Below are positions 9,313 to 29,957 of a stretch of 64,000 bases of DNA, one piece after another. A program made the position numbers and the translations under genes. A model generated the notes under the pieces. That model did not search any database. It was not told the DNA's origin and saw only the letters and a list, made by a program, of their open reading frames with translations. Source of the stretch: an uncultured Clostridia bacterium (GTDB lineage Bacteria > Bacillota > Clostridia > UMGS1883); NCBI GenBank assembly GCA_947589005.1, contig CANPZO010000002.1:7713-71712 (forward strand), given 5' to 3'. The first letter of the stretch is position 1. Each line of letters starts with the position of its first letter.

Positions 9313-9441
9313 TGTGTCTTATTGCGGTATTGTAGTAGGGGAAATGTGATGTTGTTATAGGATTTTTCAATCGCTCATGCACCAAAGCTCCTTTCAGATA
9401 TATATCATTACTTTGATATTATCAGAAAGGAGTTTTTTATT

Positions 9442-9810: not shown

Positions 9811-10084
9811 GTAATGCCATAAGCGGTTGATGAAACATATATTATCATTTTGATATATACCAGCGGCCGACTGTGCAGGAACATAGTCCATCGCTCCTAT
9901 TCTACTTAAGAGAGACTTGTATTTTATAAAAAGCTGTGTTATTATACATATGATTTTACTCATCAATAAACTACATCTCAGATCTTGGTGTAAATAAAAA
10001 AATTATATAAAAACCGAACCTTTTACGCTGATTTTGTCACTATATAATGTCAGTACTGAAAAAATTATGAAAGTGGGATGCCAT

Positions 10085-13328: not shown

Positions 13329-14213
13329 ATGTTGAAACAAATCAGATATTTTCACGCCGTGGTGCGTCTGGGCAGCTTCAGCGAGGCGGCGGAGCAATGT
13401 TACATATCGCAGTCCGCGATCTCTCAGCAGGTTCAGGCCCTGGAGCGGGAGCTGGGCGTAACGCTGCTGAAACGGGAGAACCGGCATTTTTCTCTGACGC
13501 CCGCCGGAGAGCATTTCTACCGGCAAAGCCTTTTATTTATGGCGGACTTTGACCGGCTGTGCAAGGAGACGAAACAAATCGCTCAGGGAGATGATTTTGT
13601 CCTGCGCGTCGGATATACCAAGGGATACGGCGGCGCGGAATTTCAGCGGGCGGTGGCGGAATTTACGGCGAAATACCCCGATGTTCCCATCGACATGAAA
13701 AACGGCAATCACGAGGACTTGTATGAACTACTGCGCGGTGGACAGGCGGATTTGGTGCTGAACGACCAGAGGCGCGCTTTTTCGGACGAGTACGTCAATA
13801 CCGTCCTGACCGTAATAAACTGCTATATCGAAATATCCGCCAGAAATCCCATTGCCGGGTTGGATTATGTCAATGTCAGCGATCTGCGGAACACTCCCTG
13901 TATTTTGGTCGCATCGAAAGAGCAGCAGGAAAACGAACGGTCCTATTATCATGAGATATATGGGATCGAGAGCCAATTTATATTCGCCGAAAATTTGGAT
14001 GAAGCACGGCTCATGGTCGTGAGTGGGAAGGGCTTTCTCCCCATTGAGGGAGGCGAGGCGCCGTCGCAGTTTGCCGAGACGATTGCGCGGCTTCCCCTTT
14101 GCCGAAACGGAAAACCCATAAGACGCAATTACTGCGCTTTTTGGAAGGTCAATAACTCCGGCTACTATATCGAGGAATTTGCCGAGATATTGAAAGCTCA
14201 GTTTAAGAAATAG
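13329..14213 (+). CDS. LysR-family transcriptional regulator
   Basis: N-terminal LysR HTH 'IRYFHAVVRLGSFSEAAEQCYISQSAISQQVQALERELGVTLL'. 294 aa. Confidence 0.85.
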   Translation: MLKQIRYFHAVVRLGSFSEAAEQCYISQSAISQQVQALERELGVTLLKRENRHFSLTPAGEHFYRQSLLFMADFDRLCKETKQIAQGDDFVLRVGYTKGYGGAEFQRAVAEFTAKYPDVPIDMKNGNHEDLYELLRGGQADLVLNDQRRAFSDEYVNTVLTVINCYIEISARNPIAGLDYVNVSDLRNTPCILVASKEQQENERSYYHEIYGIESQFIFAENLDEARLMVVSGKGFLPIEGGEAPSQFAETIARLPLCRNGKPIRRNYCAFWKVNNSGYYIEEFAEILKAQFKK

Positions 14214-14382
14214 AATATTTGATTCTGTCTAAGAGCCTGCCGGTGCAGGTTCTTTTTTCGTATTAGCTTTTGCTTATAGATAAGCCCCGAAAATCGAATT
14301 GCACTTTCCGACGGAAAGCTGTACAATATAAAGTGTAAATATGGCTTCGGAAGATAAAACAAATCATAAGGAGGACTTTATC

Positions 14383-14904
14383 ATGGATAAAAATCTGATC
14401 ATCTACTACTCCCGCAAAGGGAAAAACTACGTAAACGGCGGCATCAAAAATCTTGCCAAGGGCAACACGGAGATCGTGGCGGAGTTTATCCAAAAAGCAG
14501 TGGGCGGCGACCTTTTTCAGATCGAGACGGTAAAGGAATACGCAGCGGACTATTATGCCTGCACTGACGAGGCTAAGAAAGAACTGCGCGAACAGGCAAG
14601 ACCGGAGCTGAAAAAGTATCTGGACAGCATTGACTGTTACGACAACATTTTTGTTTGCGGCCCATGCTGGTGGGGAACTTTCCCGATGGCGGTGTTCACC
14701 CAGCTTGAAAGGCTGGATTTCACCGGCAAAAAGGTAATGGCCGTCATGACCCATGAGGGCAGCGGCCTCGGCTCCTGCGAGCGCGACCTGAAGAAAATCT
14801 GCGTGGGCGCGTCCTTTGGAAAAGGGCTTGCCATTCACGGCGCGGACGCCGCAAGGTCCGAAAGCACGGTTGCGGCATGGACGAAAAAGGCCGCCGCAAA
14901 TTGA
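14383..14904 (+). CDS. Flavodoxin-family protein (Flavodoxin_4-like), cytoplasmic
   Basis: RBS AAGGAGG before MDKNLIIYYS. Motifs 'LIIYYS...G.T' and 'FVCGPCWWGTFP'. Paralogous to the flavodoxin domains at 37768, 35687 and 38466. Confidence 0.8.
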   Translation: MDKNLIIYYSRKGKNYVNGGIKNLAKGNTEIVAEFIQKAVGGDLFQIETVKEYAADYYACTDEAKKELREQARPELKKYLDSIDCYDNIFVCGPCWWGTFPMAVFTQLERLDFTGKKVMAVMTHEGSGLGSCERDLKKICVGASFGKGLAIHGADAARSESTVAAWTKKAAAN

Positions 14905-14929
14905 TGATTTTAATAAGGAGGAAAGCAAA

Positions 14930-15784
14930 ATGATTCTTGACAGAAACGAAAACAAAGAAGTGGTTGTTCTTTTGGGCGCCGGCAGCATGGGGTGCGCCAT
15001 TGTCCGCCGCATTGCCGCGGGCAAAAAGATTTTGCTGGGCGACATCAGCGAAAAGGCGCTGGAGAGGGTTTCCCGTGAGTTCACCTACGGCGGGTACGAT
15101 GTGGAAACGCAGGCCGTAGACGCCTGTGATGAGCAGTCCATAAGGGCATTCGCGGAAAAGGCCGCCTCTCTCGGTCCGGTAATGTACTACATCCACACGG
15201 CGGGCGCGTCCCCCAGTCAGGCAAGCCCGGAACATATCATCAAGCTCGACTTGATCGGCACCTCCTACGCCATTGACGCTTTCGGTGAAGTGATGGCGCG
15301 GGGCGGCGCGGGCCTCATCGTTTCCAGCCAGACCGGGTATATGCCTCATACCCTCACTGCCGAGGACGAAGAAGCCCTTGCCATGACGCCGACTGATAAG
15401 CTCGCCTCCCTCCCTTGTCTCGACGGCTCGAAAACGCCTAATCAGGGCGCGGCCTATATCGTCTCCAAGCGGGTGAATCAGCTCCGCGTCCGCACGGCGG
15501 CGGCCACAACATGGGCGGATCGAGGTGCAAGGATTAACACCATAAGCCCCGGCATCATCGTGACGCTATTGGCCTATGACGAGTTCAATTCGCCGGGCAA
15601 CACCTATCAGAACATGATCGACTGCTCCGCCGTGGGCCGCGCGGGAACATCGGACGAGATCGCGGCGGCGGGCGCGTTTTTGCTGGGGACGGACGCCGGA
15701 TTTATCACGGGAACCGATTTGCTCATAGACGGCGGCGTGATCGCTTCTCTTAAAAGCGGGCGGTTCAATCTCAATATCAGGTAA
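14930..15784 (+). CDS. Short-chain dehydrogenase/reductase (SDR)
   Basis: RBS AAGGAGG. Rossmann 'VVVLLGAGSMGCAIVRRIA'. SDR catalytic region 'AAYIVSKRV'. Confidence 0.85.
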   Translation: MILDRNENKEVVVLLGAGSMGCAIVRRIAAGKKILLGDISEKALERVSREFTYGGYDVETQAVDACDEQSIRAFAEKAASLGPVMYYIHTAGASPSQASPEHIIKLDLIGTSYAIDAFGEVMARGGAGLIVSSQTGYMPHTLTAEDEEALAMTPTDKLASLPCLDGSKTPNQGAAYIVSKRVNQLRVRTAAATTWADRGARINTISPGIIVTLLAYDEFNSPGNTYQNMIDCSAVGRAGTSDEIAAAGAFLLGTDAGFITGTDLLIDGGVIASLKSGRFNLNIR

Positions 15785-15892
15785 GAAAGTCAGTGCGAAA
15801 ATGGAGCGGCGTGGACAGCCGTTCCGTTTTTTATGGCTCATTATCGTCGCCCTTAATTTCATTCAATTCATGAACCGTTTTCTTACCCGGCT

Positions 15893-15940
15893 TCAACCTT
15901 TTGGTTTAACCGTATAAACTTTTTTGAACTTCCCTTTTTT
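15893..15940 (+). promoter_or_regulatory. Conserved upstream element copy 1 (aaccttttggtt...ataaacttttttgaacttcc)
   Basis: One of three copies (also 33066..33112 and 37652..37725), each about 45-50 bp upstream of a start codon. Confidence 0.6.
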
Positions 15941-15991
15941 GATAAGCTGTTGTAAAATATGCTTAGGTAAAGTTTTCAGGGAAGGATGTGG

Positions 15992-17855
15992 AATGATGAA
16001 AAATATTATCGGAATGGTTCTGGGGCTGGCTGTCGTGCTGACTGCGTCAGCATGCAGCGCGGCGGAAAACGACAGCGGCAACGCTTCGAGCTTTATCCCC
16101 GACGCCAGACGGACTCAGACCATTTATTTTTGGGACGAGGGAAATGTCCCGGCCACCACAAGCTATACCGTCAACAACGGCAATTACTTTGATCCGCCCG
16201 AGTTCCGGCCGAATATGATTTTTTATCCGGCGGACGAGGGTACGCAGATAAAGGGCGCCGTGATGATAAATCCGGGCGGGGCTTTCATGTTCCGTGGCGA
16301 CAATGAAGGCGCTCCGGTGGCGAGAATGCTCAACCGTTACGGCTATCAGTGCTTTGTCGTCAATTACCGGCTCCGTCCCTATACCCAGGAGGAGGGCGCC
16401 CTCGACCTGGCGAGAGGCATAAGGTTCGTGCGGAAACACGCCGACATCTACGGCATCGACCCCCGGGATATAGCGTCAATCGGTTTCAGCGCCGGAGGAA
16501 TTCTGAGCGGAGAAGTGGCCATGAACTTTGACGGGCTTGTGAACGGGACCGCCATCGATAGTGGCTATGTCCCCGATGAACTGGATCAAGTGAGCGCCGA
16601 CTTGGCCGCGGAAGGGATGTTCTATTCATTTTACGGCAGGCTAAGCGTGGCGTCCCTCGACGTCGATAAGTTTCGGGAGGCCGAGCTGCCGCCAACCTAT
16701 GTCTGCTATGGCAGCAACGAGGTGTTCCGAGGTCAGATCGAAAATCACATTGTCGCCCTCCGCGAGGCGGGTATCCCTGTCGAGACTAATATGCTTGAGG
16801 GTCTGTACCACGGCTTTGCCTCGGGCGGCGGCTGGGGAGATGATTTTGACCGCTGGCTGAGCGGGGTTTTCGCGGAAAACGGCGGGGAGCTTACCGCTGA
16901 CTTTGCCTCGGCGGAACTGCGCGGCGGCGAGCTGACATACTCCCTCGACATAAAAGGGAACCCCGACAGAGCCGACATAATAGTCGCCTTTTACGACAGC
17001 GGCGGGACATTGGCGGGCGTGAACATAAATAAGCCGGAGGGCACGATAAACGCCGGTGGCGGAGGCACGCTAAAGCTGTTCCTGTGGGAGAAAGGGGCGC
17101 TCAGACCACTGACCGCGGCGAAAACCCTGCGTTTCGGCGGCGAACGGGAAACTCACCTCAACAATGTACTCGCCGGAGCGGACGGCAATATCCACTACAC
17201 CTACATTCTTCCGGCGGGGTACGACGAAAGCAAAACCTATCCCATGCTGATGACCTTGCCCGGCTGGAGCAATCTGTTCAATACCATCGAGACGACGCCC
17301 CTTACACAGAACCGTTACGCCGAGGGCAACGCGGCCGCGTGGACCGAGCTGGGAGGGGACTTCATCGTGGTTTCGCCCAGCCTCACCGACTGGGGCGCGA
17401 AATCGGCCCGTCAGACTGTTGAGCTTGCCGACTATTTTGTGGAAAACTTCCCCGTTGACCCAAAGCGGATATACGCGGCGGGCTTTTCCGCCGGAGGAGA
17501 GACTCTTTCGAGGGCGGTTGACATGAGGCCGGAGCTGTTCGCGGCCTATCTGCATATCTCGTCCCAGTGGGACGGCGGCTTTGAAAACGCGGCCTCCGCG
17601 CGTCTGCCGGTGTATATCTTCATAGCGGAGAACGACGAATACTACGGCTCGGCTCAGGCCCGCCGGGCATACGCTTCTCTTCGGGAAGCCTACGCCGCCG
17701 AGGGCATGACGGATGAGGAAATCGACGGGCTGCTGGTTCTGGACGTGCGGGACGATGAGTTCTTCAACGATCTGGGCATATACAGCTACCATGGCGGCGG
17801 AGGCGTCGCCGCAAACCAACAGGATATTATTTTGTGGATGTTAGGGAGGAATTAA
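15992..17855 (+). CDS. Secreted lipoprotein with two alpha/beta-hydrolase (esterase) domains separated by the recurrent YD..G.L/F.W..PL module
   Basis: Signal 'MMKNIIGMVLGLAVVLTASAC'. Domain 1 has 'NPGGAFMF' and the 'GFSAGG' nucleophile elbow. Domain 2 has 'GFSAGGETLS' (esterase / PHB-depolymerase-like). The middle carries 'AFYDSGGTLAGV...LFLWEKGALRPL'. Confidence 0.8.
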
Positions 17856-17857
17856 AA

Positions 17858-20800
17858 ATGAAAAAGCTTATTTCAATTCTTACGGCTGCGGCCCTTTTGA
17901 TTTGCTCAGTCGCCTGCGGCGCGGCGGGAGAACAGAACATGAGCGCCGCCGAAAAGGAGAGCTTCATAAGCGAAAATCTGGACGCCAGACACAGGCACCT
18001 GTCGGCCCTCGTAACCCTCAGCGCCAACATGGCCTACGACAAAATCGCCGGAGAGGTGGAGGCCGCTCTCAACGACGGCCTCACGCCCGTTGAGATAAAG
18101 GAGGCCATATATCACAGCGCGGCCTACTGCGGCTACACCCGGGCGGCGAGCGCCCTTGACGCGGCGGACGCGGCCCTTGAGGCCCTGGGCGCCGACACGG
18201 CTTACAGAACGCGGATAACCTCAAATGAGGAAAACCGCTACAATGACGGCCTGACGGTGCAGCGTTTCCTCTTTGGGCCGCAGATAGGCACAATAACCGA
18301 GGGCATGGCTCCCGCCATGAAGCTGCAAACCCTGTACCTTTCGGGAATATGCTTCGGCGACTTCTACAATCGCACCGGCCTCAGCCTTTACGACCGTGAG
18401 TTCCTGACCTTCTGCACCATAGTCGCCGACGGCAACTGTCAGGGTCAGCTCATGGGTCACGCCAATGGGAATTACGGCGTCGGACACTCCCCGGATATGC
18501 TTCGGGCGGCCATCCTCGCCAACGAGGAAGTGAACGGCCCTGAAAAGACCGCTCAGGCTCTGAACGTGATAGATACCGTGCCCGGCGCGGCGGCGGAGAA
18601 TGTGAAGCCGGAGCCGGAAGAAAAAACGCCCGTGACCCTTGACTACGAAAGCGACAGCGCCGAGCTTTTGGCCACAATGGAGCATTACAGGGCCGACGAC
18701 GCCGACGGCTTCATAGCCGCCAATCTGGACGGGCAGGCTCAAAACCTCGTCACAGAAGCGACGACAGCGGCAATAAACGGAGCCGCCGCTCCAACCTCCG
18801 ATAACAAGGCCCTGCAAAATCTCATCGACCTTGCGGTAATCGCCGCCGAGGGCGGACGGGAGGCCGAAGTCCCCGCCAAGGTGGCCGAGAGCATAAGCGC
18901 CGGAAACAGCGGCGACAGAATGTTGGCGGCGGCTCTGCTGGCCACGCCGTACAACGGCTTCCCCCGGACGCTGAACATCATGAGCGCGATTAATTCCGCC
19001 CTTGCCGATTTGCCCGAGCCGGAAAAGACCGTTGTCACCATGACAATAGGAAGTCCCACCATGACCGTGAACGGCGCCGAAGCTCCCATCGACGCTGAGG
19101 ACACCGTGCCCATGGTGACAAACGGACGCACCCTGCTGCCTGTACGGGCCTTCGTGGAGGCAATCGGCGGCAGCGTAAGCTGGGACGACGTGTCCCGTAC
19201 GGCGACCCTTACCTATAACGGAACCGAAATCAAGCTCACGATAGACTTGGCCGCCGCTATCCTTAACGGTGAGGAACGCACCCTTGACGTTGCCCCCGTC
19301 GTAGTAAACGGACGCACTATGCTGCCCATACGCTTCATCGCTGAGAGCTTCGGTTTTACGGTGCTGTGGAACGGAGAAACGCAGACCGTGACCGTAATCG
19401 ACGCGGACACAATAGATTACGTTTTCCCCAGAGGAATGGTAAATCCCGTCCCCAACTTCACCGGCGTGTCATATCTGAACTTCATGACCGGTTATGACGA
19501 AACAATGAAGATACCCTCCTTCGGGCTGGTGACCTTCGAGCCCTGCACAAGGACCGACTGGCACAGCCACGACGGCGGGCAGATACTCCTTGTGACCGAG
19601 GGAAGAGGGATATTCAAGGCCGAAGGAGAACCGGCCCGGTATATGCTCCCCGGCGACGTTATAATGATAGCTCCGGGGCAGAAGCACATCCACGCCGCCG
19701 CCGATGACAGTTGGTTCGCCCATATTGCGCTGAGCACCAATCCGGGCGCCGGTACCACCAACTGGTACGAAAAGGTCGGCGACGAGGAATACCAAACCTA
19801 CGTCGCCGAGGCGGAGGCCTCCGGCAGAACCGCCGAAGTGAGAAACACCGTGTTCCCCCGTGGCGAGGTTTACACCTCACAGGGCCTGATCGGTACGGCC
19901 TATAAAAACACCCTTGTTGAATATGAAAGCATCTGGAACTGTCCGGAGGTGGACAATTATACCCTTGAAGCCGGCGCGTCGGTAAGCCCCCACAGCCATC
20001 AGGGCGGTCAGATAATAGCCGTCACAAATGGCGGCGGCAGCTACACGGAAAACGGCGAAACAACAGAAATTAAGCCCGGTGACATTTTGACCGCTCAGCC
20101 CGGAGCAATTCACTCGATAACCGCCGGCGGAAGCGGGATTGCCTTCATAGCCGTGAACGGAAGTCCCGGCAGCGACGCTGTGAAATGGGAAAACGGCTCC
20201 GTTGCCCCGACCGAACAGTCCGCCGTGGCAAAAACCGAAGCGGGGCTTGTGCAGGGCGAGATCAGAAACGGCATATACACATATCTCGGCGTTCCATACG
20301 CCGAGGCGAAGGAGCGCTTCGTTCCGGCCGAAAAGGTGACCCCATGGGAAGGCGTGCGTCCGGCTCTCGAATACGGGCCAATGTCGCCCCAGGGCATGGT
20401 GCAGGGCGGCACGGACAACAACTGCCAGAATTTGAATATATGGACGCCGGCACTGGCCGACGGCGGTAAACGCCCGGTTATGGTGTGGCTCCACGGAGGC
20501 GGCTTTTCCTCCGGCACGGCCAACGAAACCACCACTGACGGCGAAAACCTCAGCCGTAAAGGCGACGTGGTCGTAGTTTCGGTCAATCACAGGCTGAACC
20601 TCATGGGACATCTTGACCTTTCGGCCTACGGCGACAAGTATAAATATTCCGCCAACGTGGGCATAGCCGACATAGTTGACTCCCTTGAATGGATAAGGGA
20701 CAATATCGAACAGTTCGGCGGCGACCCAAACAACGTGACCGTTTTTGGCGAGTCTGGTGGCGGCGCCAAGGTTCTGGCCCTGATGACCGCGCCCGAGGCA

Positions 20801-21691
20801 AAGGGCCTGTTCGATAAGGGCATTGTCGAAAGCGGCGCTACCGAGACAGTCGGCCCGGTGTTTACCTCCCTTGAGGCCAGCCGCAGGGTCACCGAGCTGA
20901 TGCTCGGCGAGCTCGGCATAACCCCCGACCGTATCGAGGAGCTGCAAACCGTTGATTATGACAGGCTCAACGAGGCCGGTAACGCGGCTCTTGCTCAGAC
21001 AGCTCAGGAGTTTAAGATACCCGCCGCTTTGGGCGCGGGCTACAGCATGGAATGGGAGCCGGTTTTGGACGGCGATTATATGCCCACCGACCCGGTGACC
21101 GCGGACTCCTTTGCCGAGGCGGGCAGAGATGTTCCTCTCCTGATAGGCACCAACCTCAACGAGTGGACGGTAATGGGTTCCATGTTCGGCGGCGGACAGC
21201 AGGATAACGCCAGCCTTGACGAGCGTATGCGTCAGACCTACGGCGACGACGCCCAGCGGGTAATGGAGGAGTTCGCCAAAGCCTATCCCAATGAGGAGCC
21301 GAAGAACGCCCTTTACATCGACACTCTCATAAGAATGCCCATACTTAAGATCATGTCTCACAAGGCCGACCAGAACGGCGCGCCGGTCTACTCCTACATT
21401 TTCAGCTGGGGAACGTCCTATCACACGGCGGAGATACCCTTTGTGTTCAACAATGTTGACAAGACCCAGGTCAGCGGCGACCCGGAAGAGGCCAGCAAGC
21501 TGTCCGAGGTGATGAGCCAGGCGTGGATAAACTTCGCCCGAACCGGTAACCCGGGCGGGAACGGAGTTCCAAGCTGGGAGCCGTATACGCGGAGCGGCGG
21601 TGCGGTGATGATTTTCGACAACGAGACCTATCTCACCCACAACCACGATAAGGAGCTGCTTGAGATACTGGCCCCTGATTATGAGTATTAA
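17858..21691 (+). CDS. Giant multi-domain secreted lipoprotein, domain order CMD(AhpD-like) x2, Cu-amine-oxidase-N x2, cupin x2, type-B carboxylesterase
   Basis: Lipoprotein signal 'MKKLISILTAAALLICSVAC'. CMD motifs 'IKEAIYHSAAYCGYTRA' and 'LLATPYNGFPRT'. Cu_amine_oxidN1 repeats 'MTIGSPTMTVNGAEAPID...LLPVRAFVEAIGGSVSWD'. Cupins 'WHSHDGGQILLVTEG' and 'SPHSHQGGQIIAVTNG'. Carboxylesterase has 'VWLHGGGF' and 'FGESGGG'. Confidence 0.8.
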   Translation: MKKLISILTAAALLICSVACGAAGEQNMSAAEKESFISENLDARHRHLSALVTLSANMAYDKIAGEVEAALNDGLTPVEIKEAIYHSAAYCGYTRAASALDAADAALEALGADTAYRTRITSNEENRYNDGLTVQRFLFGPQIGTITEGMAPAMKLQTLYLSGICFGDFYNRTGLSLYDREFLTFCTIVADGNCQGQLMGHANGNYGVGHSPDMLRAAILANEEVNGPEKTAQALNVIDTVPGAAAENVKPEPEEKTPVTLDYESDSAELLATMEHYRADDADGFIAANLDGQAQNLVTEATTAAINGAAAPTSDNKALQNLIDLAVIAAEGGREAEVPAKVAESISAGNSGDRMLAAALLATPYNGFPRTLNIMSAINSALADLPEPEKTVVTMTIGSPTMTVNGAEAPIDAEDTVPMVTNGRTLLPVRAFVEAIGGSVSWDDVSRTATLTYNGTEIKLTIDLAAAILNGEERTLDVAPVVVNGRTMLPIRFIAESFGFTVLWNGETQTVTVIDADTIDYVFPRGMVNPVPNFTGVSYLNFMTGYDETMKIPSFGLVTFEPCTRTDWHSHDGGQILLVTEGRGIFKAEGEPARYMLPGDVIMIAPGQKHIHAAADDSWFAHIALSTNPGAGTTNWYEKVGDEEYQTYVAEAEASGRTAEVRNTVFPRGEVYTSQGLIGTAYKNTLVEYESIWNCPEVDNYTLEAGASVSPHSHQGGQIIAVTNGGGSYTENGETTEIKPGDILTAQPGAIHSITAGGSGIAFIAVNGSPGSDAVKWENGSVAPTEQSAVAKTEAGLVQGEIRNGIYTYLGVPYAEAKERFVPAEKVTPWEGVRPALEYGPMSPQGMVQGGTDNNCQNLNIWTPALADGGKRPVMVWLHGGGFSSGTANETTTDGENLSRKGDVVVVSVNHRLNLMGHLDLSAYGDKYKYSANVGIADIVDSLEWIRDNIEQFGGDPNNVTVFGESGGGAKVLALMTAPEAKGLFDKGIVESGATETVGPVFTSLEASRRVTELMLGELGITPDRIEELQTVDYDRLNEAGNAALAQTAQEFKIPAALGAGYSMEWEPVLDGDYMPTDPVTADSFAEAGRDVPLLIGTNLNEWTVMGSMFGGGQQDNASLDERMRQTYGDDAQRVMEEFAKAYPNEEPKNALYIDTLIRMPILKIMSHKADQNGAPVYSYIFSWGTSYHTAEIPFVFNNVDKTQVSGDPEEASKLSEVMSQAWINFARTGNPGGNGVPSWEPYTRSGGAVMIFDNETYLTHNHDKELLEILAPDYEY

Positions 21692-21887
21692 ACGCGGGAG
21701 GGAGGGCTTAGTGTGAAAAAATCACACTAAGCCCCGGCAGATTTTACGCGCCGTCGAATTTTTCCTCACCCCGATGGGGTTCGGAAACGACGATGCGCAA
21801 AAAAATCTCTTATCATTCCTTGCCCTGCGATAAGAGATTTTCCGTGAATTATAGTTTTTGCTCGCAGGGCGGCGGAATGGAGATTTT

Positions 21888-23981
21888 ATGAAAAAAATAC
21901 TTGTAACCCTCCTGTGCCTGACGCTGATAATGACGGGCTCGGCCTGCGGCGCGGCGGAGGACGGTGATATAATCAGCGCCGAACGGCCCGTGTTCGACGG
22001 CGGCGCGATAAGGTTTTCGATAACCTCGAAAACCGACGCCGACGATGTGCTGACAGCCGCCGCCCTCTACAGCGGCGGCAGGCTGGAAGGGGTGAAGGTG
22101 AACACTTTGAACGGCGAATTTGCCGTAAACAGCGGCGACGAATATATGATGAAAATTTTTGCTTGGGAAAGGGACACCTTAAGACCTCTGACCTCCGTTT
22201 TGACCTTTGACGGCCTGAAAGCGGGGGATAAGCGCCTGCCCGGCGAGGAGCTGGACGAAATCCCCGCGCCCTATTATAACGCCTCCAACGAACCGGGAAC
22301 TCTTGAGGAGCTGTATTACGACACATACGAGTCCTTTTCATACGAGAGCAAGACCCGTCCCCTTACTAAGCGGGCCATAATCTACCTCCCATACGGCTAT
22401 GACGAGGGCAAGCGGTACAATATTTTTTACTATATGCACGGCGGCTGGAGCAACGAGACTACCTCCCTCGGCGTACCGGGCAGGCCCTCAGCCTTAAAAA
22501 ACGTTATTGACAACGCCATAGCGAACGGCGAAATGCAGCCGATGATAATCGTGTGTCCCACTTATAACAACACTAACGAAAACGGTCAGGACAGCGACAA
22601 TTTCAGCCTGGCCCTCCAGCTCAACCGTCAGTTTCACAACGAATTGGTGAACGACCTGATGCCGGCGGCGGAAAGCAGGTACAGCACCTACGCTGCGGAC
22701 GTGACGCCGGAGGGGCTGGCCGCTTCCAGACGGCATCGGGGCTTCGGGGGCTTTTCCATGGGTTCGGTAGCCACGTGGCGAACCTTTCAGAACTGCCTGG
22801 ACTACTTCTACTATTTTATGCCCATGAGCTGCGGCACCTCCCTTGACGATGAAAACATATTCAGCGCCGCCGAGGGCCGGGATCAAAGCGATTATTTTGT
22901 ATGGGTCATGACCGGCACAAACGATTTTGCTTACAGCTACGTCAACAATCGCGTCAATAAGATGCGTGGCTCGAAGTATTTTACCGAAAATGAGAACTTT
23001 ATTTACCGCGTAAAGGAAGGGTACGACCACGGCGGTCTGGCGAGCATGGAATACAGCTATAACGGATTGAAATATTTTTGGAACGAATACGGCGCGACCG
23101 GCGGCCAATCGCACGCCGCCTACACCGCCGAAACAAAAATTTCCGACGTGATAAGCGACCCCGCCTTCGGCGATTACGGGCGGCTGCTGTTCCCGGTGAA
23201 CAGCGGCTATTACGGCGGAAGCACTCTGGGCGATCTGTCCATGACATGGTACAACTATATCGACCCGGACAAGACCGTGGAGATAGCAAATTATATGAAG
23301 TCCCACGCGGATGCCGGAGATACGGTGTTTTATGACATTTACACCGAGGCCGAAAAGACGGCTGACCCCGCCAAGCGCAACACCGGCCTGTTCTTCTTCC
23401 GGGGTGAGCCGGGCGCCAAGTTCGCCATCTGCAACGCCGGCGGAGGGTTTGCCTACGTGGGAGCGATGCACGACAGCTTTCCCCACGCTTTGGAGCTGAG
23501 CAAAAAGGGCTACAACGCCTTTGCCCTGATATACCGTCCCGGCTGGGACACCGCCATGGAGGACCTGGCCCGGGCCATCGCCTTTGTGCATGAAAACGCC
23601 GGCGAACTTCAGGTGGATGTTACGGGCTACTCTCTTTGGGGCGGCAGCGCCGGGGCGAGAATGGCCGCCGACCTCGGCACATACGGCACGGCCTATTACG
23701 GCGAAAAGTCCTATCCCAAGCCGGCCGCCGTCATAATGCAGTACACCGGCCATTCGGAGGTCACCGGCGACGAGCCGCCCACCTACAGCTGCGTGGGCAC
23801 AAGCGACGGCATCGCCAATTACCGCACCATGGAGCGGCGCATAAACGCCATAAAAGCCAACGGAACGGACGCCGAGATAGAAGTGTTTGCGGGTCTGCCC
23901 CACGGCTTCGGCCTTGGCACAGGAACCGTGGCCGAGGGCTGGTTAGATAACGCCGTGGCCTTTTGGGAAAGAAATATGTAA
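21888..23981 (+). CDS. Secreted lipoprotein: N-terminal recurrent module plus esterase-family domain plus alpha/beta-hydrolase (BD-FAE/lipase-like) domain
   Basis: Signal 'MKKILVTLLCLTLIMTGSAC'. Recurrent module 'ALYSGGRLEGV...IFAWERDTLRPL'. Esterase signature 'IIYLPYGYDEGKRYNIFYYMHGGW'. Second domain has 'YSLWGGSAGA' GxSxG. Confidence 0.8.
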   Translation: MKKILVTLLCLTLIMTGSACGAAEDGDIISAERPVFDGGAIRFSITSKTDADDVLTAAALYSGGRLEGVKVNTLNGEFAVNSGDEYMMKIFAWERDTLRPLTSVLTFDGLKAGDKRLPGEELDEIPAPYYNASNEPGTLEELYYDTYESFSYESKTRPLTKRAIIYLPYGYDEGKRYNIFYYMHGGWSNETTSLGVPGRPSALKNVIDNAIANGEMQPMIIVCPTYNNTNENGQDSDNFSLALQLNRQFHNELVNDLMPAAESRYSTYAADVTPEGLAASRRHRGFGGFSMGSVATWRTFQNCLDYFYYFMPMSCGTSLDDENIFSAAEGRDQSDYFVWVMTGTNDFAYSYVNNRVNKMRGSKYFTENENFIYRVKEGYDHGGLASMEYSYNGLKYFWNEYGATGGQSHAAYTAETKISDVISDPAFGDYGRLLFPVNSGYYGGSTLGDLSMTWYNYIDPDKTVEIANYMKSHADAGDTVFYDIYTEAEKTADPAKRNTGLFFFRGEPGAKFAICNAGGGFAYVGAMHDSFPHALELSKKGYNAFALIYRPGWDTAMEDLARAIAFVHENAGELQVDVTGYSLWGGSAGARMAADLGTYGTAYYGEKSYPKPAAVIMQYTGHSEVTGDEPPTYSCVGTSDGIANYRTMERRINAIKANGTDAEIEVFAGLPHGFGLGTGTVAEGWLDNAVAFWERNM

Positions 23982-24027
23982 TAAAAAAGCGACCGGGCGG
24001 CTCAAACTTGCCGGTGAGCCCTATGAA

Positions 24028-24216: not shown

Positions 24217-24609
24217 TTAAAACTTTATTTCCTCCGGCGGGGCGGTGAAGGACGAGAAAACCGCCGTGGCGTCCTTGAAATACAGAACCTCGGTGTTGTC
24301 GTCGTCGGGGGAGTACATGGCCTGAAGATCGGGATAGCTCTCGAGCAGGTGGGCCTTGGCCTCCCTGCGGTCGTCCCGCACAAGTGTGCCCGAAACGCGG
24401 AGCCACTTTTCGCCGTTAAAAGCGCAAAGCTCCGCCTTGGGGTTAGCTTGAATTTGCTTCGACACGGCCTTTGCCTTGCCGGTCTGAATGTAAAGCTTAC
24501 CCTCGAAAATGTCCACCGTACCGAAGGGGCGCACCCTCGGCTGGTCCCCCTCCGCCGTGGCCATATAGTAGGTTCCGCAGGCTTTCAGAAATTCATAAAC
24601 CTTTTCCAT
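24217..24609 (-). CDS. Pyridoxamine 5'-phosphate oxidase-like FMN-binding protein (general stress protein 26 family)
   Basis: 'MEKVYEFLKACGTYYMATAEGDQPRVRPFGTV' is a typical PNPOx-like N-terminus. 130 aa. Confidence 0.75.
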   Translation of the reverse strand: MEKVYEFLKACGTYYMATAEGDQPRVRPFGTVDIFEGKLYIQTGKAKAVSKQIQANPKAELCAFNGEKWLRVSGTLVRDDRREAKAHLLESYPDLQAMYSPDDDNTEVLYFKDATAVFSSFTAPPEEIKF

Positions 24610-26918: not shown

Positions 26919-28352
26919 ATGAAAACATTGAACGCAAAAAGGCTGATCGCCTTTGCGGTGGCCGTGGCGGTGATCTGCCTGGGCTTCGGCCTTTACGCCT
27001 GGCACAGCGGCCGTCCCGTGATGGACACGGCGCAGGCGGCGGACGCGGGCACGGTGATCAAGCTGCAAATCGGCAGCCCCACCATGACCGTCAACGGGGC
27101 GGAGCAGGAGATCGACCCCGGCAGAGGAACGGCGCCCATCATTCAGGATAACCGGACGCTGCTCCCAATTCGGGCGGTCATCGAGGCCCTGGGCGGCAGC
27201 GTGACCTGGGATCAGGAAACTCAGACGGTTATGCTGGCGTATAAGGGCGACATAATCACCATGGTCATCGGCAGCACCTCGGCCTATATCAACGAGGACG
27301 CCCAGACCCTTGACGTGGCCCCCGTCATAATCGACGGGCGCACCATGCTGCCCATACGCTTTGTGGCGGAGGGCTTCAAGCTGGGCGTTGACTGGGACGG
27401 CGAGACCCGGATCGTCACCGTGACCGCGTCCGCGCCGGAGGGACACGCCACCAATGACGCCGACGCCCCGACGGTGTACATGACGACGAGCATCACCCCG
27501 GAGGCCCTTGTCGCCATATATGAGAAGCTGGGCTTTGAACCCCAGGGCAACGTCGCGGTGAAGATGTCCACCGGCGAGCCGCCAAACAGCAACTATTTAA
27601 GACCGGAGCTTATCGGCGACTTGGTTAAAAAGGTTGACGGTACAATCGTTGAGTGCAACACCGCCTACGGCGGCAGCCGCTCCAATACCGCCATGCATAA
27701 ACAAGTTATAGAGGATCACGGTCTTAACGCCATATCAAAGAACGGTGTCGCTGACATTATGGACGAGGACGGTTCCCTCGTAATCCCCGTACCCACGCCC
27801 GAAAACGGCAAGTCAACCATTACCGAGGACTATGTGGGCGCTCACCTCGCCAACTATGACAGCCTAATCTCGCTGGCCCACTTCAAGGGTCACGCAATGG
27901 CGGGCTACGGCGGAGCCATAAAGAATATGTCAATCGGCATCGGCTCCACCGAGGGCAAGTGCTATATCCATTCCGCCGGACAGAGCCACACCTCGCCCTG
28001 GGGCGGCGATCAGGACAAATTCCTTGAATCCATGGGCGACGCCACCAGCGCCGTTGTCAATCAGTTTGACGGACGGGTGGTATATATCAACGTGATGAAC
28101 CGGCTGTCCGTGGACTGCGACTGCGACGGCAATCCCGCCGAGCCGGATATGCACGACATCGGTATACTGGCCTCCTATGACCCGGTGGCTTTGGATCAGG
28201 CGTGTCTTGACCTCGTATATGCTCAAAAGGACGGCGACGGCAAGTCTCTCGTCCAGCGCATCGAGAGCCGCAACGGTCTCCACACCCTCGAGCACGCCGA
28301 GGAAATAGGGCTTGGAAGCAGAACGTACAATTTGGTCAGCATAGATAACTAA
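26919..28352 (+). CDS. Secreted or membrane-anchored protein: Cu-amine-oxidase-N repeats plus DUF362 domain
   Basis: N-terminal anchor 'LIAFAVAVAVICLGFGLYAW'. Cu_amine_oxidN1 'LQIGSPTMTVNGAEQEID...LLPIRAVIEALGGSVTWD'. DUF362-like 'IVECNTAYGGSRS...LAHFKGHAMAGYGGAIKNMSIGIGS...DCDCDGNP'. Paralog of 38466..40205. Confidence 0.75.
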   Translation: MKTLNAKRLIAFAVAVAVICLGFGLYAWHSGRPVMDTAQAADAGTVIKLQIGSPTMTVNGAEQEIDPGRGTAPIIQDNRTLLPIRAVIEALGGSVTWDQETQTVMLAYKGDIITMVIGSTSAYINEDAQTLDVAPVIIDGRTMLPIRFVAEGFKLGVDWDGETRIVTVTASAPEGHATNDADAPTVYMTTSITPEALVAIYEKLGFEPQGNVAVKMSTGEPPNSNYLRPELIGDLVKKVDGTIVECNTAYGGSRSNTAMHKQVIEDHGLNAISKNGVADIMDEDGSLVIPVPTPENGKSTITEDYVGAHLANYDSLISLAHFKGHAMAGYGGAIKNMSIGIGSTEGKCYIHSAGQSHTSPWGGDQDKFLESMGDATSAVVNQFDGRVVYINVMNRLSVDCDCDGNPAEPDMHDIGILASYDPVALDQACLDLVYAQKDGDGKSLVQRIESRNGLHTLEHAEEIGLGSRTYNLVSIDN

Positions 28353-28427
28353 GCTTGACAGAACCAATAAAAAAGAGTATAATTCAGGTAGTACAAAATT
28401 AATATTTAATATAAGGAGGAAAACAAA

Positions 28428-28781
28428 ATGGCATGTTTTATCGTACCAACGGCGGAGGCAATCGTAACGACGGTTGTAAAGAAATCTACGGACAAAAAGG
28501 AAACGCGTAATCCCTTCATCAAACGGCTGAACTGGCTTAACAATATGCTTTGGGGCGGCAGCGCGCTCCTCGCTTTCGAGCACGTTTGGCACGGGGAGGT
28601 TACGCCCTGGTTCCCGTTCCTGACCAACGCGGCGACGCCCGCAAGCACGGCCGCGATGCTGGGAGAAATGGCGACGTCCGGCGTGGGCATGGCGCTCTTG
28701 GTTACGGCGGTATGGGCCGGAATTGCCGCCGCTGCAAACGCGATAGAAAAACGCCCTGTAAGCGCGGAATTGCAGGCATAA
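28428..28781 (+). CDS. Small predicted membrane protein
   Basis: RBS AAGGAGG. Hydrophobic segments. Confidence 0.5.
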   Translation: MACFIVPTAEAIVTTVVKKSTDKKETRNPFIKRLNWLNNMLWGGSALLAFEHVWHGEVTPWFPFLTNAATPASTAAMLGEMATSGVGMALLVTAVWAGIAAAANAIEKRPVSAELQA

Positions 28782-28785
28782 ACGA

Positions 28786-29094
28786 ATGACGCTTTTAATA
28801 ACGGTTTTCGCGGCCGTCACGGTAACGGTGATTTGGTACAACACCGCGGGCAGAATGAAGCTGGGGACGCTGGCGCTGATGCTTTGGGGCGCGGCGTTGA
28901 TGTGGCTTGTTGACGCTGTCGCGGAATACATAGAAGTCGGGGCGGAGTATTTTACTCCCGCCCCGGCGGATATGCTGAACGACGCTTATCTCGGACTGTC
29001 CGTGATTGCCCTCGCGCTGGTGATATGGCTTGCGGTCGTCTTGTACAAAGACCCGAAGGGCCGGATAAGAAAGGCCATACAAAAAGAAAAATAG
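28786..29094 (+). CDS. Small predicted membrane protein
   Basis: Three hydrophobic helices. Adjacent to the previous small gene. Confidence 0.5.
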   Translation: MTLLITVFAAVTVTVIWYNTAGRMKLGTLALMLWGAALMWLVDAVAEYIEVGAEYFTPAPADMLNDAYLGLSVIALALVIWLAVVLYKDPKGRIRKAIQKEK

Positions 29095-29103
29095 GGGATA
29101 GGG

Positions 29104-29150
29104 CGGTTTTGTTTGTAGGCTGAAACCGCCCTTCTTTTCAGGAGCAAACA
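29104..29150 (+). terminator. Intrinsic terminator
   Basis: 'agggcggttttgtttgtaggctgaaaccgcccttcttttc'. Confidence 0.55.
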
Positions 29151-29164
29151 GGAGCAAAGAAAAA

Positions 29165-29956
29165 ATGAACGCAAAATATGAGAAGCTAAAAAATTATCTG
29201 AAAGACCTTGGCTCGGTTGCCGTGGCCTTTTCCGGCGGCGTGGATTCTACCTTTCTGTTAAAGACCGCCCATGACGTTTTGGGCGACAAGGCGGTCGCCG
29301 TGACCGCCCGGTCCTGTTCCTTTCCGGAGCGGGAGCTCGGCGAGGCAAAGCGGTTTTGCGCCCGGGAGGGAATTCGCCATATTGTGGTGCAATCGGAAGA
29401 GCTGAGCATCGAGGGCTTCGCGGACAATCCGAAAAACCGCTGTTACCTCTGCAAAACGGAACTGTTCAAAAAAATGCGTGAAGCGGTCGCCTCCCTTGGG
29501 ATAGAGCATATCGCGGAGGGGTCCAATATGGACGACAACGGCGATTACCGCCCCGGACTTATCGCGGTTCGGGAGCAGGGCATCAAAAGTCCGCTGCGAT
29601 ACGCGGAGCTTAATAAAAATGAAATACGGGAATTATCCAAGGAGCTTGGTTTAGATACATGGAATAAGCAGTCCTTCGCCTGCCTTTCCTCCCGCTTTGT
29701 TTACGGTGAGAAAATTACGGAGGAAAAGCTGAACATGGTGGACAGGGCCGAACAATACCTGCTGGATTTGGGATTTACTCAGGTGCGGGTGCGGATCCAC
29801 GGGAAAATGGCGCGAATAGAAATTAACAGGGACGAATTCCCCAAAATGATAGGCGTGTCCCAACAGGTTTACGAGTATCTGAAAAATTTGGGCTTTACCT
29901 ATGTGTCGCTGGACCTTTGCGGCTACCGCACGGGGAGCATGAACGAGGTGCTGTGA
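29165..29956 (+). CDS. larE: LarE-like ATP-dependent sulfur-transferase (PP-loop ATP pyrophosphatase) of nickel-pincer cofactor biosynthesis
   Basis: PP-loop 'AVAFSGGVDSTFLLKTAHD'. Conserved 'NPKNRCYLCK'. Immediately followed by larB. Confidence 0.75.
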   Translation: MNAKYEKLKNYLKDLGSVAVAFSGGVDSTFLLKTAHDVLGDKAVAVTARSCSFPERELGEAKRFCAREGIRHIVVQSEELSIEGFADNPKNRCYLCKTELFKKMREAVASLGIEHIAEGSNMDDNGDYRPGLIAVREQGIKSPLRYAELNKNEIRELSKELGLDTWNKQSFACLSSRFVYGEKITEEKLNMVDRAEQYLLDLGFTQVRVRIHGKMARIEINRDEFPKMIGVSQQVYEYLKNLGFTYVSLDLCGYRTGSMNEVL

Positions 29957-29957
29957 A

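Follow-up and report, generated by a model that had tools for sequence, protein, structure and literature searches.

A single gene of an uncultured Clostridia bacterium joins CMD-fold, PF07833, cupin and carboxylesterase modules on one chain with an export signal

The 64,000-nt stretch of DNA that we analyzed (the window), which comes from a gut bacterium, contains a gene for a protein in which a signal peptide is followed by three CMD-fold units, one PF07833 ('stalk') domain, two cupins and one type-B carboxylesterase (Table 1). This architecture, which many relatives from the gut also have, is undescribed and its component families are known. Our preferred explanation, which holds about half of our confidence, is that the product is a multi-enzyme, probably dimeric and tethered at the cell surface, whose substrates are esters from the diet that are probably aromatic, with modules fused for co-export, fixed stoichiometry and co-localization and not for obligate channeling. 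Four catalytic blocks would then be arranged around PF07833, namely a PcaC-like CMD module, an Mn-type cupin, a degenerate second cupin and the carboxylesterase; we infer the substrates, the dimerization and the reaction order.

Table 1. Coordinates of the fusion gene, its modules and associated features in the window
Feature	Position (nt)	Strand	Details
LysR-family regulator	13329–14213	+	Upstream of the locus
Terminator	14231–14254		3′ of the LysR gene
Cytoplasmic Flavodoxin_4 and SDR	14383–15784	+	Flavodoxin_4 14383–14904; SDR 14930–15784
cis-element AACCTTTTGGTT-N7-ATAAAC-N8-nACTTCC	15895–15933	+	5′ of the ABH2a–fusion–ABH2b unit
ABH2a	15993–17855	+	Lipoprotein; two α/β-hydrolase domains, one BD-FAE/Abhydrolase_3-like
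Ribosome-binding site GGGAGG	17844–17849	+	8 nt 5′ of ATG 17858
Fusion gene	17858–21691	+	1277 aa and stop codon; ORF, Pfam, substitution pattern versus L004
Signal peptide (aa 1–24)	17858–17929	+	Lipobox-like SVAC (Cys20)
CMD-fold unit 1 (aa 25–125)	17930–18232	+	Invariant E82, Y85, H86, S87, Y90, C91, G92, T94, R95
CMD-fold unit 2 (aa 126–260)	18233–18637	+	Invariant C165, E181, C194, Q197, H201, H210
CMD-fold unit 3 (aa 261–395)	18638–19042	+	Invariant GGRE 332–335, YNGFPRTLN 365–373
PF07833 (Cu_amine_oxidN1) 'stalk' (aa 396–519)	19043–19414	+	Pfam and model
Cupin 1 (aa 520–650), GtHNL/TM1010 type	19415–19807	+	Invariant H569, H571, Q575, H610, H612, base H622
Cupin 2 (aa 651–775), degenerate	19808–20182	+	H712, H714, Q718, H752 kept; I754, F763 substituted
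Type-B carboxylesterase (aa 788–1277)	20219–21688	+	GESGG Ser966, Glu1102, His1189, HGGGF 879–883
ABH2b	21888–23981	+	Lipoprotein; CE1 feruloyl-esterase-like (aa 160–400) and second BD-FAE-like hydrolase domain
Second cis-element unit	33067–37391	+	cis-element 33067–33105; Fe-ADH 33161–34330; lipoprotein α/β-hydrolase 34544–35689; stalk–Flavodoxin_4 35686–36528; aldo-keto reductase (AKR) to 37391
Third cis-element unit	37678–40205	+	cis-element 37678–37716; Flavodoxin_4 37768–38250; exported DUF362–Flavodoxin_4 38463–40205

An open reading frame (ORF) scan revealed an uninterrupted frame at 17834–21691 of the + strand, with the ATG at 17858 as the likely start codon and a stop codon ending at 21691, and the coordinates assigned to the fusion by an earlier sequence-only reading (17858–21691) hold. 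A long antisense ORF (19877–21646) was rejected as a by-product of the GC3 of 0.72. The stalk domain is present in several window genes and the DNA seems to come from a metagenome assembly, both in keeping with separate genes having been artificially joined at the repeated domain into a chimera or pseudogene. However, other species, sampled in different studies, have the seven-module order at 21 independent loci (50–65% identity), and the exact protein, or variants in its 90%-identity cluster, are present at full length on four contigs of 149.5, 125, 15 and 9.8 kb. A relative that is 96% identical (L004) is collinear with the window over 15886–23995, and its 158 substitutions in the fusion gene, accompanied by no indels, are distributed 21/17/120 over codon positions 1/2/3, a bias that spans the entire gene. 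No long DNA repeat was found at the stalk junction, the closest other stalk copy within the window being 68% identical at the DNA level. Mis-assembly, raised in the sequence-only reading, is therefore ruled out by cross-assembly evidence, the chimera explanation is effectively refuted, and the fusion is a genuine single gene.

Pfam scanning of the whole protein and of split segments identified CMD PF02627 three times (aa 36–104, ~161–238 and ~300–377; scanned alone, the second stretch scored 21.7 bits, slightly below the 23-bit cut-off, and the third 24.0), PF07833 once (aa 404–513, 126 bits), Cupin_2 twice (~aa 551–611 and 702–760) and COesterase PF00135 once (aa 788–1258, E 6e-86). The total of seven Pfam-level modules agrees with the seven domains counted earlier, but there are three CMD units rather than two and one stalk domain rather than two; in the structure model the latter consists of two β-rich half-repeats, one of which is deleted in P0021 and P0022. 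The signal peptide reads MKKLISILTAAALLICSVAC followed by G, with a Cys at −4, and scores 14 bits against the 24-bit cut-off of the NCBIfam lipoprotein model, so the lipoprotein assignment is plausible with a non-canonical lipobox. Signal peptides are predicted on nearly all family members, fused and split, which points to export being conserved across the family. Homologs mostly carry signal-peptidase-I AxA sites. Of the lipid-anchored chain proposed earlier, export thus stands and the anchor is not a conserved trait of the family, and the product in this lineage is possibly lipid-anchored.

Structure modeling packs the three CMD units into a single compact helical module (pLDDT 93, pTM 0.89), which Foldseek groups with PcaC-type CMDs. 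Its best sequence and fold matches, and nearest structures, are a two-unit CMD protein (4G9Q) and a PcaC-type γ-carboxymuconolactone decarboxylase (2AF7), which share a QLxxH-type motif with the fusion. Unlike these, the fusion combines three units in a single compact chain, is predicted to be exported and scores only 51.5 bits against the NCBI PcaC model, far below the cut-off of 155.7; in contrast to PcaC-type systems, no β-ketoadipate pathway genes were found near it. Stand-alone CMD1–CMD2 genes occur in relatives, and the three-unit chain is rare, with approximately 5 of 1.84 billion cluster representatives covering all three. PcaL/PcaDC/PcaCD proteins, in which a CMD is joined to an α/β-hydrolase enol-lactonase, are a precedent for a CMD–hydrolase single chain, but matches of the fusion to their NCBIfam models are weak (60 versus 390 and 20 versus 430 bits), its hydrolase is a COesterase and not PcaD, and it occurs in an anaerobic host outside a protocatechuate pathway context.

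The fusion shares the AhpD-like/CMD superfamily fold with Mycobacterium tuberculosis AhpD, and the positions of AhpD C130, E118 and H137 are occupied by Cys, Glu and His in unit 2. However, the AhpD CxxC relay is absent from all three units: unit 2 has C194-x-x-Q197-x3-H201, with Cys133 of AhpD replaced by Gln and His132 by Gly, and the structural similarity is weak (TM 0.2–0.27, rmsd ~10 Å). The label 'AhpD-like' given earlier therefore applies at the level of the fold only, and because no unit has a CxxC, the suggested processing of peroxides lacks its defining feature.

These residues also bear on a rival explanation, extracytoplasmic redox chemistry or antioxidant/electrophile defense, in which exported flavodoxins would feed a CMD module working as a reductase or peroxidase through thiol or His chemistry, reactive species would be scavenged by the Mn-cupins and the esterase would be an add-on. 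The cysteines C91, C165 and C194 never vary and C186 hardly does, the hosts are strict gut anaerobes, and in relatives Flavodoxin_4 replaces the cupins and esterase (CMDx3–stalk–FLD4, 5 loci) or a stalk–FLD4 gene adjoins (23 cases); exported Flavodoxin_4 proteins are known as electron-transfer parts (PMC11334425), and Paenibacillus has an exported Cu/Zn-SOD that likewise carries PF07833. We nevertheless consider this explanation unlikely, given the missing CxxC with an invariant Gln at the Cys133 position, a fold nearer to PcaC than to AhpD, and the absence of the ApbE flavinylation motif from the exported flavodoxins of the window; it also leaves no role for the esterase, which is the best-conserved and largest module, or for the other four esterase domains encoded by the same transcription unit. 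The exported flavodoxin partners do hint at redox chemistry, which our preferred explanation leaves unused.

PF07833 has been assigned a dimerization role (PMC10432803, PMC11334425), and in PaSOD of Paenibacillus lautus, where it is fused to Cu/Zn-SOD, it mediates homodimerization (PMC10432803). PaSOD is, like the fusion, an exported Firmicute enzyme, although it has one catalytic domain and an N-terminal stalk, whereas the stalk of the fusion is internal, between catalytic blocks. By analogy, the PF07833 domain is probably a dimerization module and the protein probably a homodimer.

Cupin 1 matches all five Mn ligands of GtHNL and its base H106, and the ligands (H, H, Q, H, H), the base His and a conserved Trp are common to GtHNL (4BIF), TM1010 (2F4P) and cupin 1; judged by these residues it is an Mn-type cupin with a complete active site. 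GtHNL and TM1010 are single-domain proteins, whereas cupin 1 is predicted to be exported, is followed by a degenerate tandem copy and is fused to other enzymes. Cupin 2 is a divergent paralog (35% identity) with I754 in place of the fifth ligand and F763 in place of the base, and it differs from L004 by 8 amino acids where cupin 1 differs by 0. The complete GtHNL active site, a best NCBIfam match to (R)-mandelonitrile lyase, hosts that inhabit herbivore and omnivore guts, and aldehyde reductases in the regulon would suit the cupins being true hydroxynitrile lyases on plant cyanohydrins, with the aldehydes reduced by ADH/AKR partners. Such detoxification of cyanohydrins or cyanogenic glycosides is very improbable: the match stays below the equivalog cut-off (108.5 versus 140 bits), the neighborhood showed no partner of the β-glucosidase, nitrilase or rhodanese type, and the CMD and esterase modules are left without a role. 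Hydroxynitrile lyase activity is, moreover, weak in this cupin family, for which we know of no natural role.

In the carboxylesterase, Ser966, Glu1102, His1189 and the HGGGF oxyanion motif are invariant in 17 homologs, and the module is predicted to be catalytically competent. Its 490 aa align end to end with the closest solved relative, a Hungatella hathewayi carboxylesterase (5A2G, E 3e-98), and with Bacillus subtilis PnbA (1QE3, E 5e-69), which share the GESGG serine, the Glu/His triad and the HGGG oxyanion motif; these are stand-alone enzymes of ~490–520 aa, whereas here the esterase is the C-terminal block of the chain.

Three genes make up an esterase unit in which the fusion lies between the lipoprotein tandem esterases ABH2a and ABH2b and is translationally coupled to them, the ABH2a stop codon being 2 nt 5′ of the ATG of the fusion. 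BD-FAE-like domains (PMC8165983) are present in both neighbors, and the CE1 domain of ABH2b matches 1gkk (E 6e-50) and is homologous to the XynY feruloyl esterase of Clostridium thermocellum. Thus, processing of aromatic esters at the cell surface, as suggested earlier, has circumstantial support from these neighbors. C. thermocellum XynY and XynZ likewise combine an esterase with other catalytic modules (xylanase) in extracellular multi-module chains; it is ABH2b, and not the fusion, that is homologous to the XynY esterase module, and the fusion differs in having CMD and cupin folds as partners and no glycoside hydrolase, CBM or dockerin. To our knowledge, CMD and cupin folds are not carbohydrate-active enzymes. 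The window also encodes an SLH–GH5 cellulase and other fiber-related surface proteins.

The cis-element 5′ of this unit, likely an activator operator adjoining the promoter, has three copies within the window (0 expected by chance), and in its relaxed form gave 18 matches in 957 kb (window and related loci) against at most 1 per shuffle in 20 shuffles. It is common to the window and other species, and each match with an identified downstream gene lies 5′ of a gene of the system on the same strand. The fusion belongs to a regulon marked by this element, together with cytoplasmic Fe-ADH, AKR and SDR reductases and exported flavodoxin and DUF362 proteins; no signal peptide was found on the Flavodoxin_4 and SDR upstream of ABH2a. 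In relatives, the genes of the second unit (Fe-ADH, hydrolase, stalk–Flavodoxin_4 and AKR) directly flank the fusion, and LysR, Fe-ADH, AKR, a lipoprotein hydrolase and a stalk- or DUF362-flavodoxin recur as neighbors. Of ~55 related loci, 3 have FAE1 and 7–9 have tandem esterases. As a feruloyl-esterase neighbor is thus a minority feature, the plant-ester link may be peculiar to this lineage.

In relatives the modules occur in other orders, split apart or with Flavodoxin_4 swapped in, and modules are also found as neighboring separate genes, which bears out the earlier description of a collinear fusion of enzymes that are separate elsewhere. Among relatives each module is gained, lost or swapped without regard to the others, and no confident rigid inter-module packing is seen in the C-terminal 882-aa model (pTM 0.52, from a shallow alignment), leaving sequential processing, also proposed earlier, unproven; both observations fit independent activities and a pathway equally well. 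The protein could accordingly be a string of unrelated exported enzymes, each with its own substrate, on a stalk framework that eases shuffling, and the many alternative module combinations and the attachment of PF07833 to quite different window enzymes (DUF362, Cthe_2159 and flavodoxin) are in keeping with this. We judge it improbable, however, as the seven-module order is kept in 21 loci, the conserved operator is common to these genes, and the same small set of families (CMD, the cupin subfamily, Flavodoxin_4 and hydrolases) recur together, fused or adjacent, across species down to ~45% identity, including an apparently cytoplasmic CMD–cupin pair in L060, from a bin labeled 'uncultured proteobacterium'.

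In the multi-enzyme explanation that we prefer, the esterase at the cell surface would cleave esters of dietary or plant origin, probably with aromatic or hydroxycinnamoyl groups, and the released or related compounds could undergo Lewis-acid activation of a carbonyl by the cupin and decarboxylase- or isomerase-type chemistry by the CMD module. Because these chemistries would need bound metal at most, they could run outside the cell, where there is no NAD(P)H or ATP, and the products would be imported and then reduced by the cytoplasmic dehydrogenases. Rather than obligate channeling, the fusion would provide co-export, fixed stoichiometry and co-localization.

Analysis of the plus strand placed the fusion in a single open reading frame (ORF) with a probable ATG start at 17858 and a 1277-aa product, in agreement with the extent and length that the sequence-only reading had given the gene. 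A word-indexed search of 5.8 billion proteins retrieved a protein of 97% identity together with 21 full-length ones of 55–64% identity and ≥98% coverage whose Pfam set is identical to that of the fusion (sources: NCBI, ENA, Logan and JGI assemblies), and a one-genome-per-species scan yielded 58 related loci. Module-wise BLAST across all 61 fetched loci recovered the order CMD1–CMD2–CMD3–stalk–cupin1–cupin2–esterase (CMD, PF02627; stalk, PF07833) in 21 ORFs. The exact window protein and three more full-length 90%-identity-cluster variants lie on contigs of 149.5, 125, 15 and 9.8 kb, and L004, a rabbit-gut MAG contig, is collinear with window 15886–23995 at ~96% identity. Within the fusion, the 158 differences from L004 fall 21/17/120 by codon position with zero indels, indicating that all modules have been under purifying selection in the plus frame. 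Between the fusion's stalk-coding DNA and the most similar of the remaining stalk copies in the window, identity reaches only 68%, so no repeat is long enough for a chimeric join. Assembly chimerism, a doubt that the sequence-only reading had itself raised, is not borne out by the collinear L004, the four contigs or the 21 same-order ORFs, and mis-assembly at the repeated stalk domain is further ruled out by the codon-position bias and the low stalk identity. An antisense ORF of 589 codons was rejected as a gene because the plus frame is under selection and a GC3 of 0.72 explains it. An Rfam scan of the window gave one tRNA only and no match in the fusion locus; a consensus promoter and terminator scan, which picked up a terminator-like site behind the upstream LysR gene, found nothing informative for the fusion gene itself.

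Pfam searches covered the full-length protein as well as seven sub-segments of it (Table). The enzyme families named in the sequence-only reading were all recovered, with two corrections: there are three CMD units in place of two, and the supposed two stalks are half-repeats (beta-rich in the model) of one Pfam domain, one half of which is missing from the homologous proteins P0021 and P0022. The N terminus is a signal peptide, MKKLISILTAAALLICSVAC/G, in which charged and hydrophobic regions are followed by LICSVAC/G (Ser at −3, Cys at −4; SATC in L004). Measured against the lipobox pattern [LVI][ASTVI][GAS]C, cleaner boxes are found in the flanking genes and in the hydrolase at 34544 (TASAC, TGSAC and SLSGC); the NCBIfam lipoprotein model scores the fusion at 14.2 bits vs a 24-bit cut-off. 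Because the box of the fusion is sub-cut-off and the signal peptides of most homologues end in an AxA-type signal-peptidase-I site, export is predicted to be conserved in the family and lipidation would be at best lineage-specific. The lipid anchor proposed in the sequence-only reading is plausible, with a non-canonical lipobox.

Positions of the fusion, its modules and further features of the window (nucleotides, or aa of the fusion product where marked)
Feature	Position	Strand	Detail
Single ORF	17834-21691	+	
GGGAGG before start	17844-17849	+	
Fusion gene	17858-21691	+	
CMD units 1, 2, 3	aa 36-104, ~161-238, ~300-377		PF02627, 74 bits total
Stalk (Cu_amine_oxidN1)	aa 404-513		PF07833, 125.9 bits, profile positions 2-108 of 108
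Cupins 1, 2	~aa 551-611, ~702-760		Cupin_2
Carboxylesterase	aa 788-1258		PF00135, E 6e-86, 289.7 bits vs cut-off 27, profile 2-501 of 515
Antisense ORF	19877-21646	-	
ABH2a	15993-17855		
ABH2b	21888-23981		
Lipoprotein alpha/beta-hydrolase	34544-35689		
Cis-element copy	15895-15933		upstream of ABH2a
Cis-element copy	33067-33105		upstream of Fe-ADH
Cis-element copy	37678-37716		upstream of flavodoxin/DUF362-flavodoxin pair
Dyad	14272-14285		GCTTATAGATAAGC, perfect
Cytoplasmic Flavodoxin_4 start	14383		ATG, RBS AAGGAGG
Fusion-ABH2b intergenic segment	21704-21872		~168 nt
Segment missing from L004	23995-24674		~680 nt
PNPOx-like gene	24217-24609	-	130 aa, FMN-binding fold
DUF362 to permease region	26919-31751		
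Stalk-DUF362	26919-28352		PF07833
LarE	29165-29956		347 bits
LarB	29958-30719		287 bits
Stalk-Flavodoxin_4	35665-36528		PF07833, half domain
Stalk-Cthe_2159 beta-helix	54041-56248		PF07833
505-nt duplicates	36027-36528, 39701-40205		97% identity
Sigma-factor-like protein	10034-12571		845 aa
GTPase-nuclease ORF	49692-52355	-	887 aa
ParB_N and DUF6017 proteins	1165-2885	-	near low-GC stretch (0.37-0.40)
Also flagged	8000-10000		

The CMD module (aa 25–395) was modelled as one compact all-helical body (pLDDT 93, pTM 0.89), whose best neighbours in sequence and fold are the two-unit CMD protein 4g9q and the PcaC-type 2af7 (Foldseek probability 1.00). By profile match and helical CMD fold, the N-terminal units belong to the CMD/AhpD-like superfamily (PF02627). 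The AhpD-like label of the sequence-only reading holds for the fold only: the AhpD structures 1gu9 and 1knc rank far below 4g9q and 2af7 (Foldseek E 0.26–1.3, rmsd ~10–12 Å), and the AhpD relay and redox residues E118, C130, H132, C133 and H137 (CxxC; PMC3141380) have E181, C194, G196, Q197 and H201 as their counterparts in unit 2. The mature protein, with Cys only at 91, 165, 186, 194, 563, 695 and 856, is without a CxxC, and on the missing motif and weak structural match a classification as AhpD was rejected. PcaC identity was rejected on a sub-cut-off score (equivalog TIGR02425, 51.5–57.9 bits vs 155.7) and on pathway context, no beta-ketoadipate genes (pcaB, pcaD, pcaGH and others) being found among the annotated window ORFs or the recurrent neighbours of the 61 loci; the same context, with NCBIfam PcaDC/PcaCD scores of 59.7 vs 390 and 20.5 vs 430 bits, excluded a PcaL-type bifunctional CMD–hydrolase. 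When 1.84 billion cluster representatives were scanned in full with HMMER, 920 matched at E ≤1e-3 and 20 at ≤1e-30; ~5 representatives spanned all three CMD units, so the three-unit module is rare.

PF07833 is the dimerisation domain of an exported Cu/Zn-SOD of Paenibacillus lautus (PaSOD, by SEC-MALS; PMC10432803) and has a predicted dimerising role in exported FMN-binding proteins (PMC11334425); by analogy, the fusion probably dimerises through it. The domain is present on three more exported window proteins (Table), and in the host organism it seems to serve as a general scaffold for exported proteins. Cupin 1 is close to TM1010 (2f4p, E 5e-25) and GtHNL (4bif, E 4e-18). The Mn ligands H53, H55, Q59, H94 and H96 and the catalytic base H106 of GtHNL (PMC13556127) correspond to H569, H571, Q575, H610, H612 and H622, all invariant, and the 12 nucleotide changes from L004 in cupin 1 include 0 amino-acid changes. 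Against the 140-bit cut-off of NF049940, cupin 2 reaches 35 bits and cupin 1 on its own 108.5 bits, and a true (R)-mandelonitrile lyase equivalog was rejected on this score. Cupin 2, 35% identical to cupin 1, has H712, H714, Q718 and H752, with I754 and F763 replacing the fifth ligand and the base; it evolves faster (8 amino-acid changes vs L004), P0021 and P0022 have lost both its HxH ligand histidines, and it probably has a structural role or a changed function. Over its full length, the C-terminal block can be aligned with PnbA and with the Hungatella hathewayi carboxylesterase 5a2g, the latter at E 3e-98. In alignment with 5a2g, Ser966 (GESGG), Glu1102 (NLNEW), His1189 and HGGGF 879–883 are invariant in 17 homologues; with profile, triad and oxyanion motif all present, it is assigned by sequence as a type-B carboxylesterase (PF00135). 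A second AlphaFold model covering aa 396–1277 from 24 sequences only reached pTM 0.52 and an esterase pLDDT of ~65, a depth at which module contacts are undecidable.

The family is carried by uncultured Clostridia of the rabbit, chicken, human and mouse gut, with bin labels that include Monoglobus, Ornithomonoglobus, Gallispira, Hominilimicola and Oscillospiraceae. The architecture varies: the esterase is missing in six cases, five are CMDx3–stalk–Flavodoxin_4 (a form carried by one cultured species, Ructibacterium gallinarum, strain DSM 107454, locus L044; a cultured carrier of the full fusion was not found), three CMDx3–stalk only, two stalk–cupin–cupin–esterase and one CMDx3–stalk–esterase, and three are split into CMD1–CMD2 and CMD3–stalk–cupin–cupin genes, a fourth CMD3–stalk–cupin–cupin ORF being cut by a contig end. 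Fused or split, nearly all variants carry signal peptides. Public databases name these proteins only 'carboxylesterase family protein' or 'carboxymuconolactone decarboxylase family protein', and a literature search found no description of the fusion architecture or the system; the component families are known, and the fusion is a variant built from known kinds with sequences public under generic names. The main rival to an ester-processing role, an extracytoplasmic redox or antioxidant function fed by exported flavodoxins, would account for the CMD–flavodoxin fusions, but it has to do without the AhpD motif and leaves the esterases without a job, and we regard it as unlikely. The ApbE flavinylation motif [ST]GA[ST] is absent from the exported flavodoxins of the window.

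Neighbours were counted over ~55 loci with a CMD module. LysR regulators occur in 20, iron-dependent alcohol dehydrogenases (Fe-ADH) in 25, aldo-keto reductases (AKR) in 29 and tandem esterases in 7–9; a lipoprotein alpha/beta-hydrolase homologous to the one at 34544 occurs in 26, usually immediately 5′ of the fusion, and Flavodoxin_4 genes, mostly stalk- or DUF362-linked, in 41. The window spreads the equivalent parts over 13.3–40.2 kb in the order LysR, cytoplasmic flavodoxin, SDR (with a terminator-like hairpin 3′ of its gene), ABH2a, fusion, ABH2b, a two-component system, stalk–DUF362, a second LysR, Fe-ADH, hydrolase, stalk–flavodoxin, AKR, flavodoxin and DUF362–flavodoxin. The stop codon of ABH2a lies 2 nt 5′ of the fusion ATG, and the fusion is co-transcribed with surface esterases. 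The ~168-nt segment between fusion and ABH2b, which opens with a perfect 13-bp hairpin (GGGCTTAGTGTGA/TCACACTAAGCCC) without a T-tract, is missing from the 96%-identical L004, as is the ~680-nt segment after ABH2b with its small PNPOx-like gene.

A 39-nt cis-element, AACCTTTTGGTT-N7-ATAAAC-N8-nACTTCC (also written AACC-N4-GGTT-N7-ATAAAC-N8-nACTTCC), is present in three copies in the window vs 0 expected by chance. In relaxed form it gave 18 matches in 957 kb of window and loci vs at most one in each of 20 shuffles; 15 of these lie in related loci, including sites directly 5′ of the fusion in three of them (L006, L036 and L038). All matches with an identified downstream gene are on the same strand and 5′ of a system gene, and this recurrence points to one regulon. 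The element ends ~23 nt before a TGnTA(C/A)AAT −10-like box, a spacing as expected for the candidate operator of an activator, perhaps LysR-type. A separate candidate for a LysR box is the perfect dyad that follows the LysR terminator and precedes the cytoplasmic Flavodoxin_4 gene.

Further features of the window were noted. The nickel-pincer genes LarE and LarB lie just 3′ of the exported stalk–DUF362 gene, with two small membrane proteins in between and an ArsP_1-type permease after; no LarC was seen in the window, and DUF362 is a member of the LarA clan. Relatives (L004, L006, L007, L013, L016, L034, L037, L047 and L056) repeat the arrangement DUF362, small TM proteins, (LarE/LarB), permease, so the exported DUF362 may use a nickel-pincer cofactor. 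The 505-nt duplicates encode the common Flavodoxin_4 domain of the stalk–flavodoxin and DUF362–flavodoxin genes, which suggests gene conversion or a recent duplication. Elsewhere, one ORF encodes a complete EF-G/TetM-like GTPase (GTP_EFTU, domains II–V) followed at the C terminus by a YacP-like NYN nuclease domain, an unusual pairing of a ribosome-binding GTPase with a predicted nuclease domain; another protein joins ECF-type sigma-70 regions 2 and 4 to a long C-terminal TPR/DUF3108-like extension; and the left end, where a ParB_N protein adjoins a DUF6017 protein, looks like a mobile element or plasmid.

The flanking genes bear on possible substrates. In ABH2b, aa 160–400 are clearly homologous to the feruloyl-esterase (CE1) module found in C. 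thermocellum XynY (1gkk, E 6e-50) and match XynZ and further ferulic acid esterases; ABH2a weakly resembles pectin and xylan acetylesterases, and both contain domains like BD-FAE, a bifunctional feruloyl/acetyl-xylan esterase family (PMC8165983). An SLH–GH5 cellulase and the stalk–Cthe_2159 protein are encoded elsewhere in the window, and fusions of DUF362 with CBM9 and dockerins have been observed in gut metagenomes that degrade fibre (PMC5742341). As predicted from sequence, the fusion product is an exported chain that combines a compact, conserved CMD module with an intact GtHNL-type metal site and a competent serine esterase, under a putative operator common to cytoplasmic reductases and exported flavodoxins. 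We suggest that the protein would be attached to the outer side of the membrane and act on diet-derived esters, probably aromatic or hydroxycinnamoyl; its modules would require only water or bound metal, which would fit a compartment without NAD(P)H, and the nicotinamide-dependent SDR, Fe-ADH and AKR would remain cytoplasmic and unfused. The free shuffling of modules and the C-terminal pTM of 0.52, from a shallow alignment, would favour co-localisation over obligate channelling.

Taken jointly, and only tentatively, the fusion may act as a Rosetta stone that reveals an extracytoplasmic enzyme system, as yet undescribed, in gut Clostridia of Monoglobales/Oscillospiraceae-like lineages, in which two- or three-unit CMD proteins, GtHNL/TM1010 Mn-cupins, Flavodoxin_4 and DUF362, commonly regarded as cytoplasmic, would be exported and PF07833-dimerised, one operator would co-regulate these families with surface esterases and cytoplasmic aldehyde/ketone reductases, and plant-derived aromatic or 2-hydroxy-acid esters would be processed at the cell surface. 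If true, the CMD-like and HNL-like cupin families would gain a first setting in physiology, and the adjacent LarB/LarE might reveal a nickel-pincer-dependent role of exported DUF362 proteins. Multi-unit CMD proteins, GtHNL/TM1010 cupins and Flavodoxin_4 are without an established physiological role in anaerobes; the conserved exported fusion, its split and shuffled versions and the shared operator together tie them to surface esterases and cytoplasmic reductases. The fusion, with its putative chemistry, would be a useful Rosetta-stone link for poorly understood families, offers exported enzyme cassettes for biocatalysis, such as an esterase plus a Lewis-acid cupin, and yields a testable hypothesis for the handling of diet-derived esters by fibre-associated gut Clostridia.
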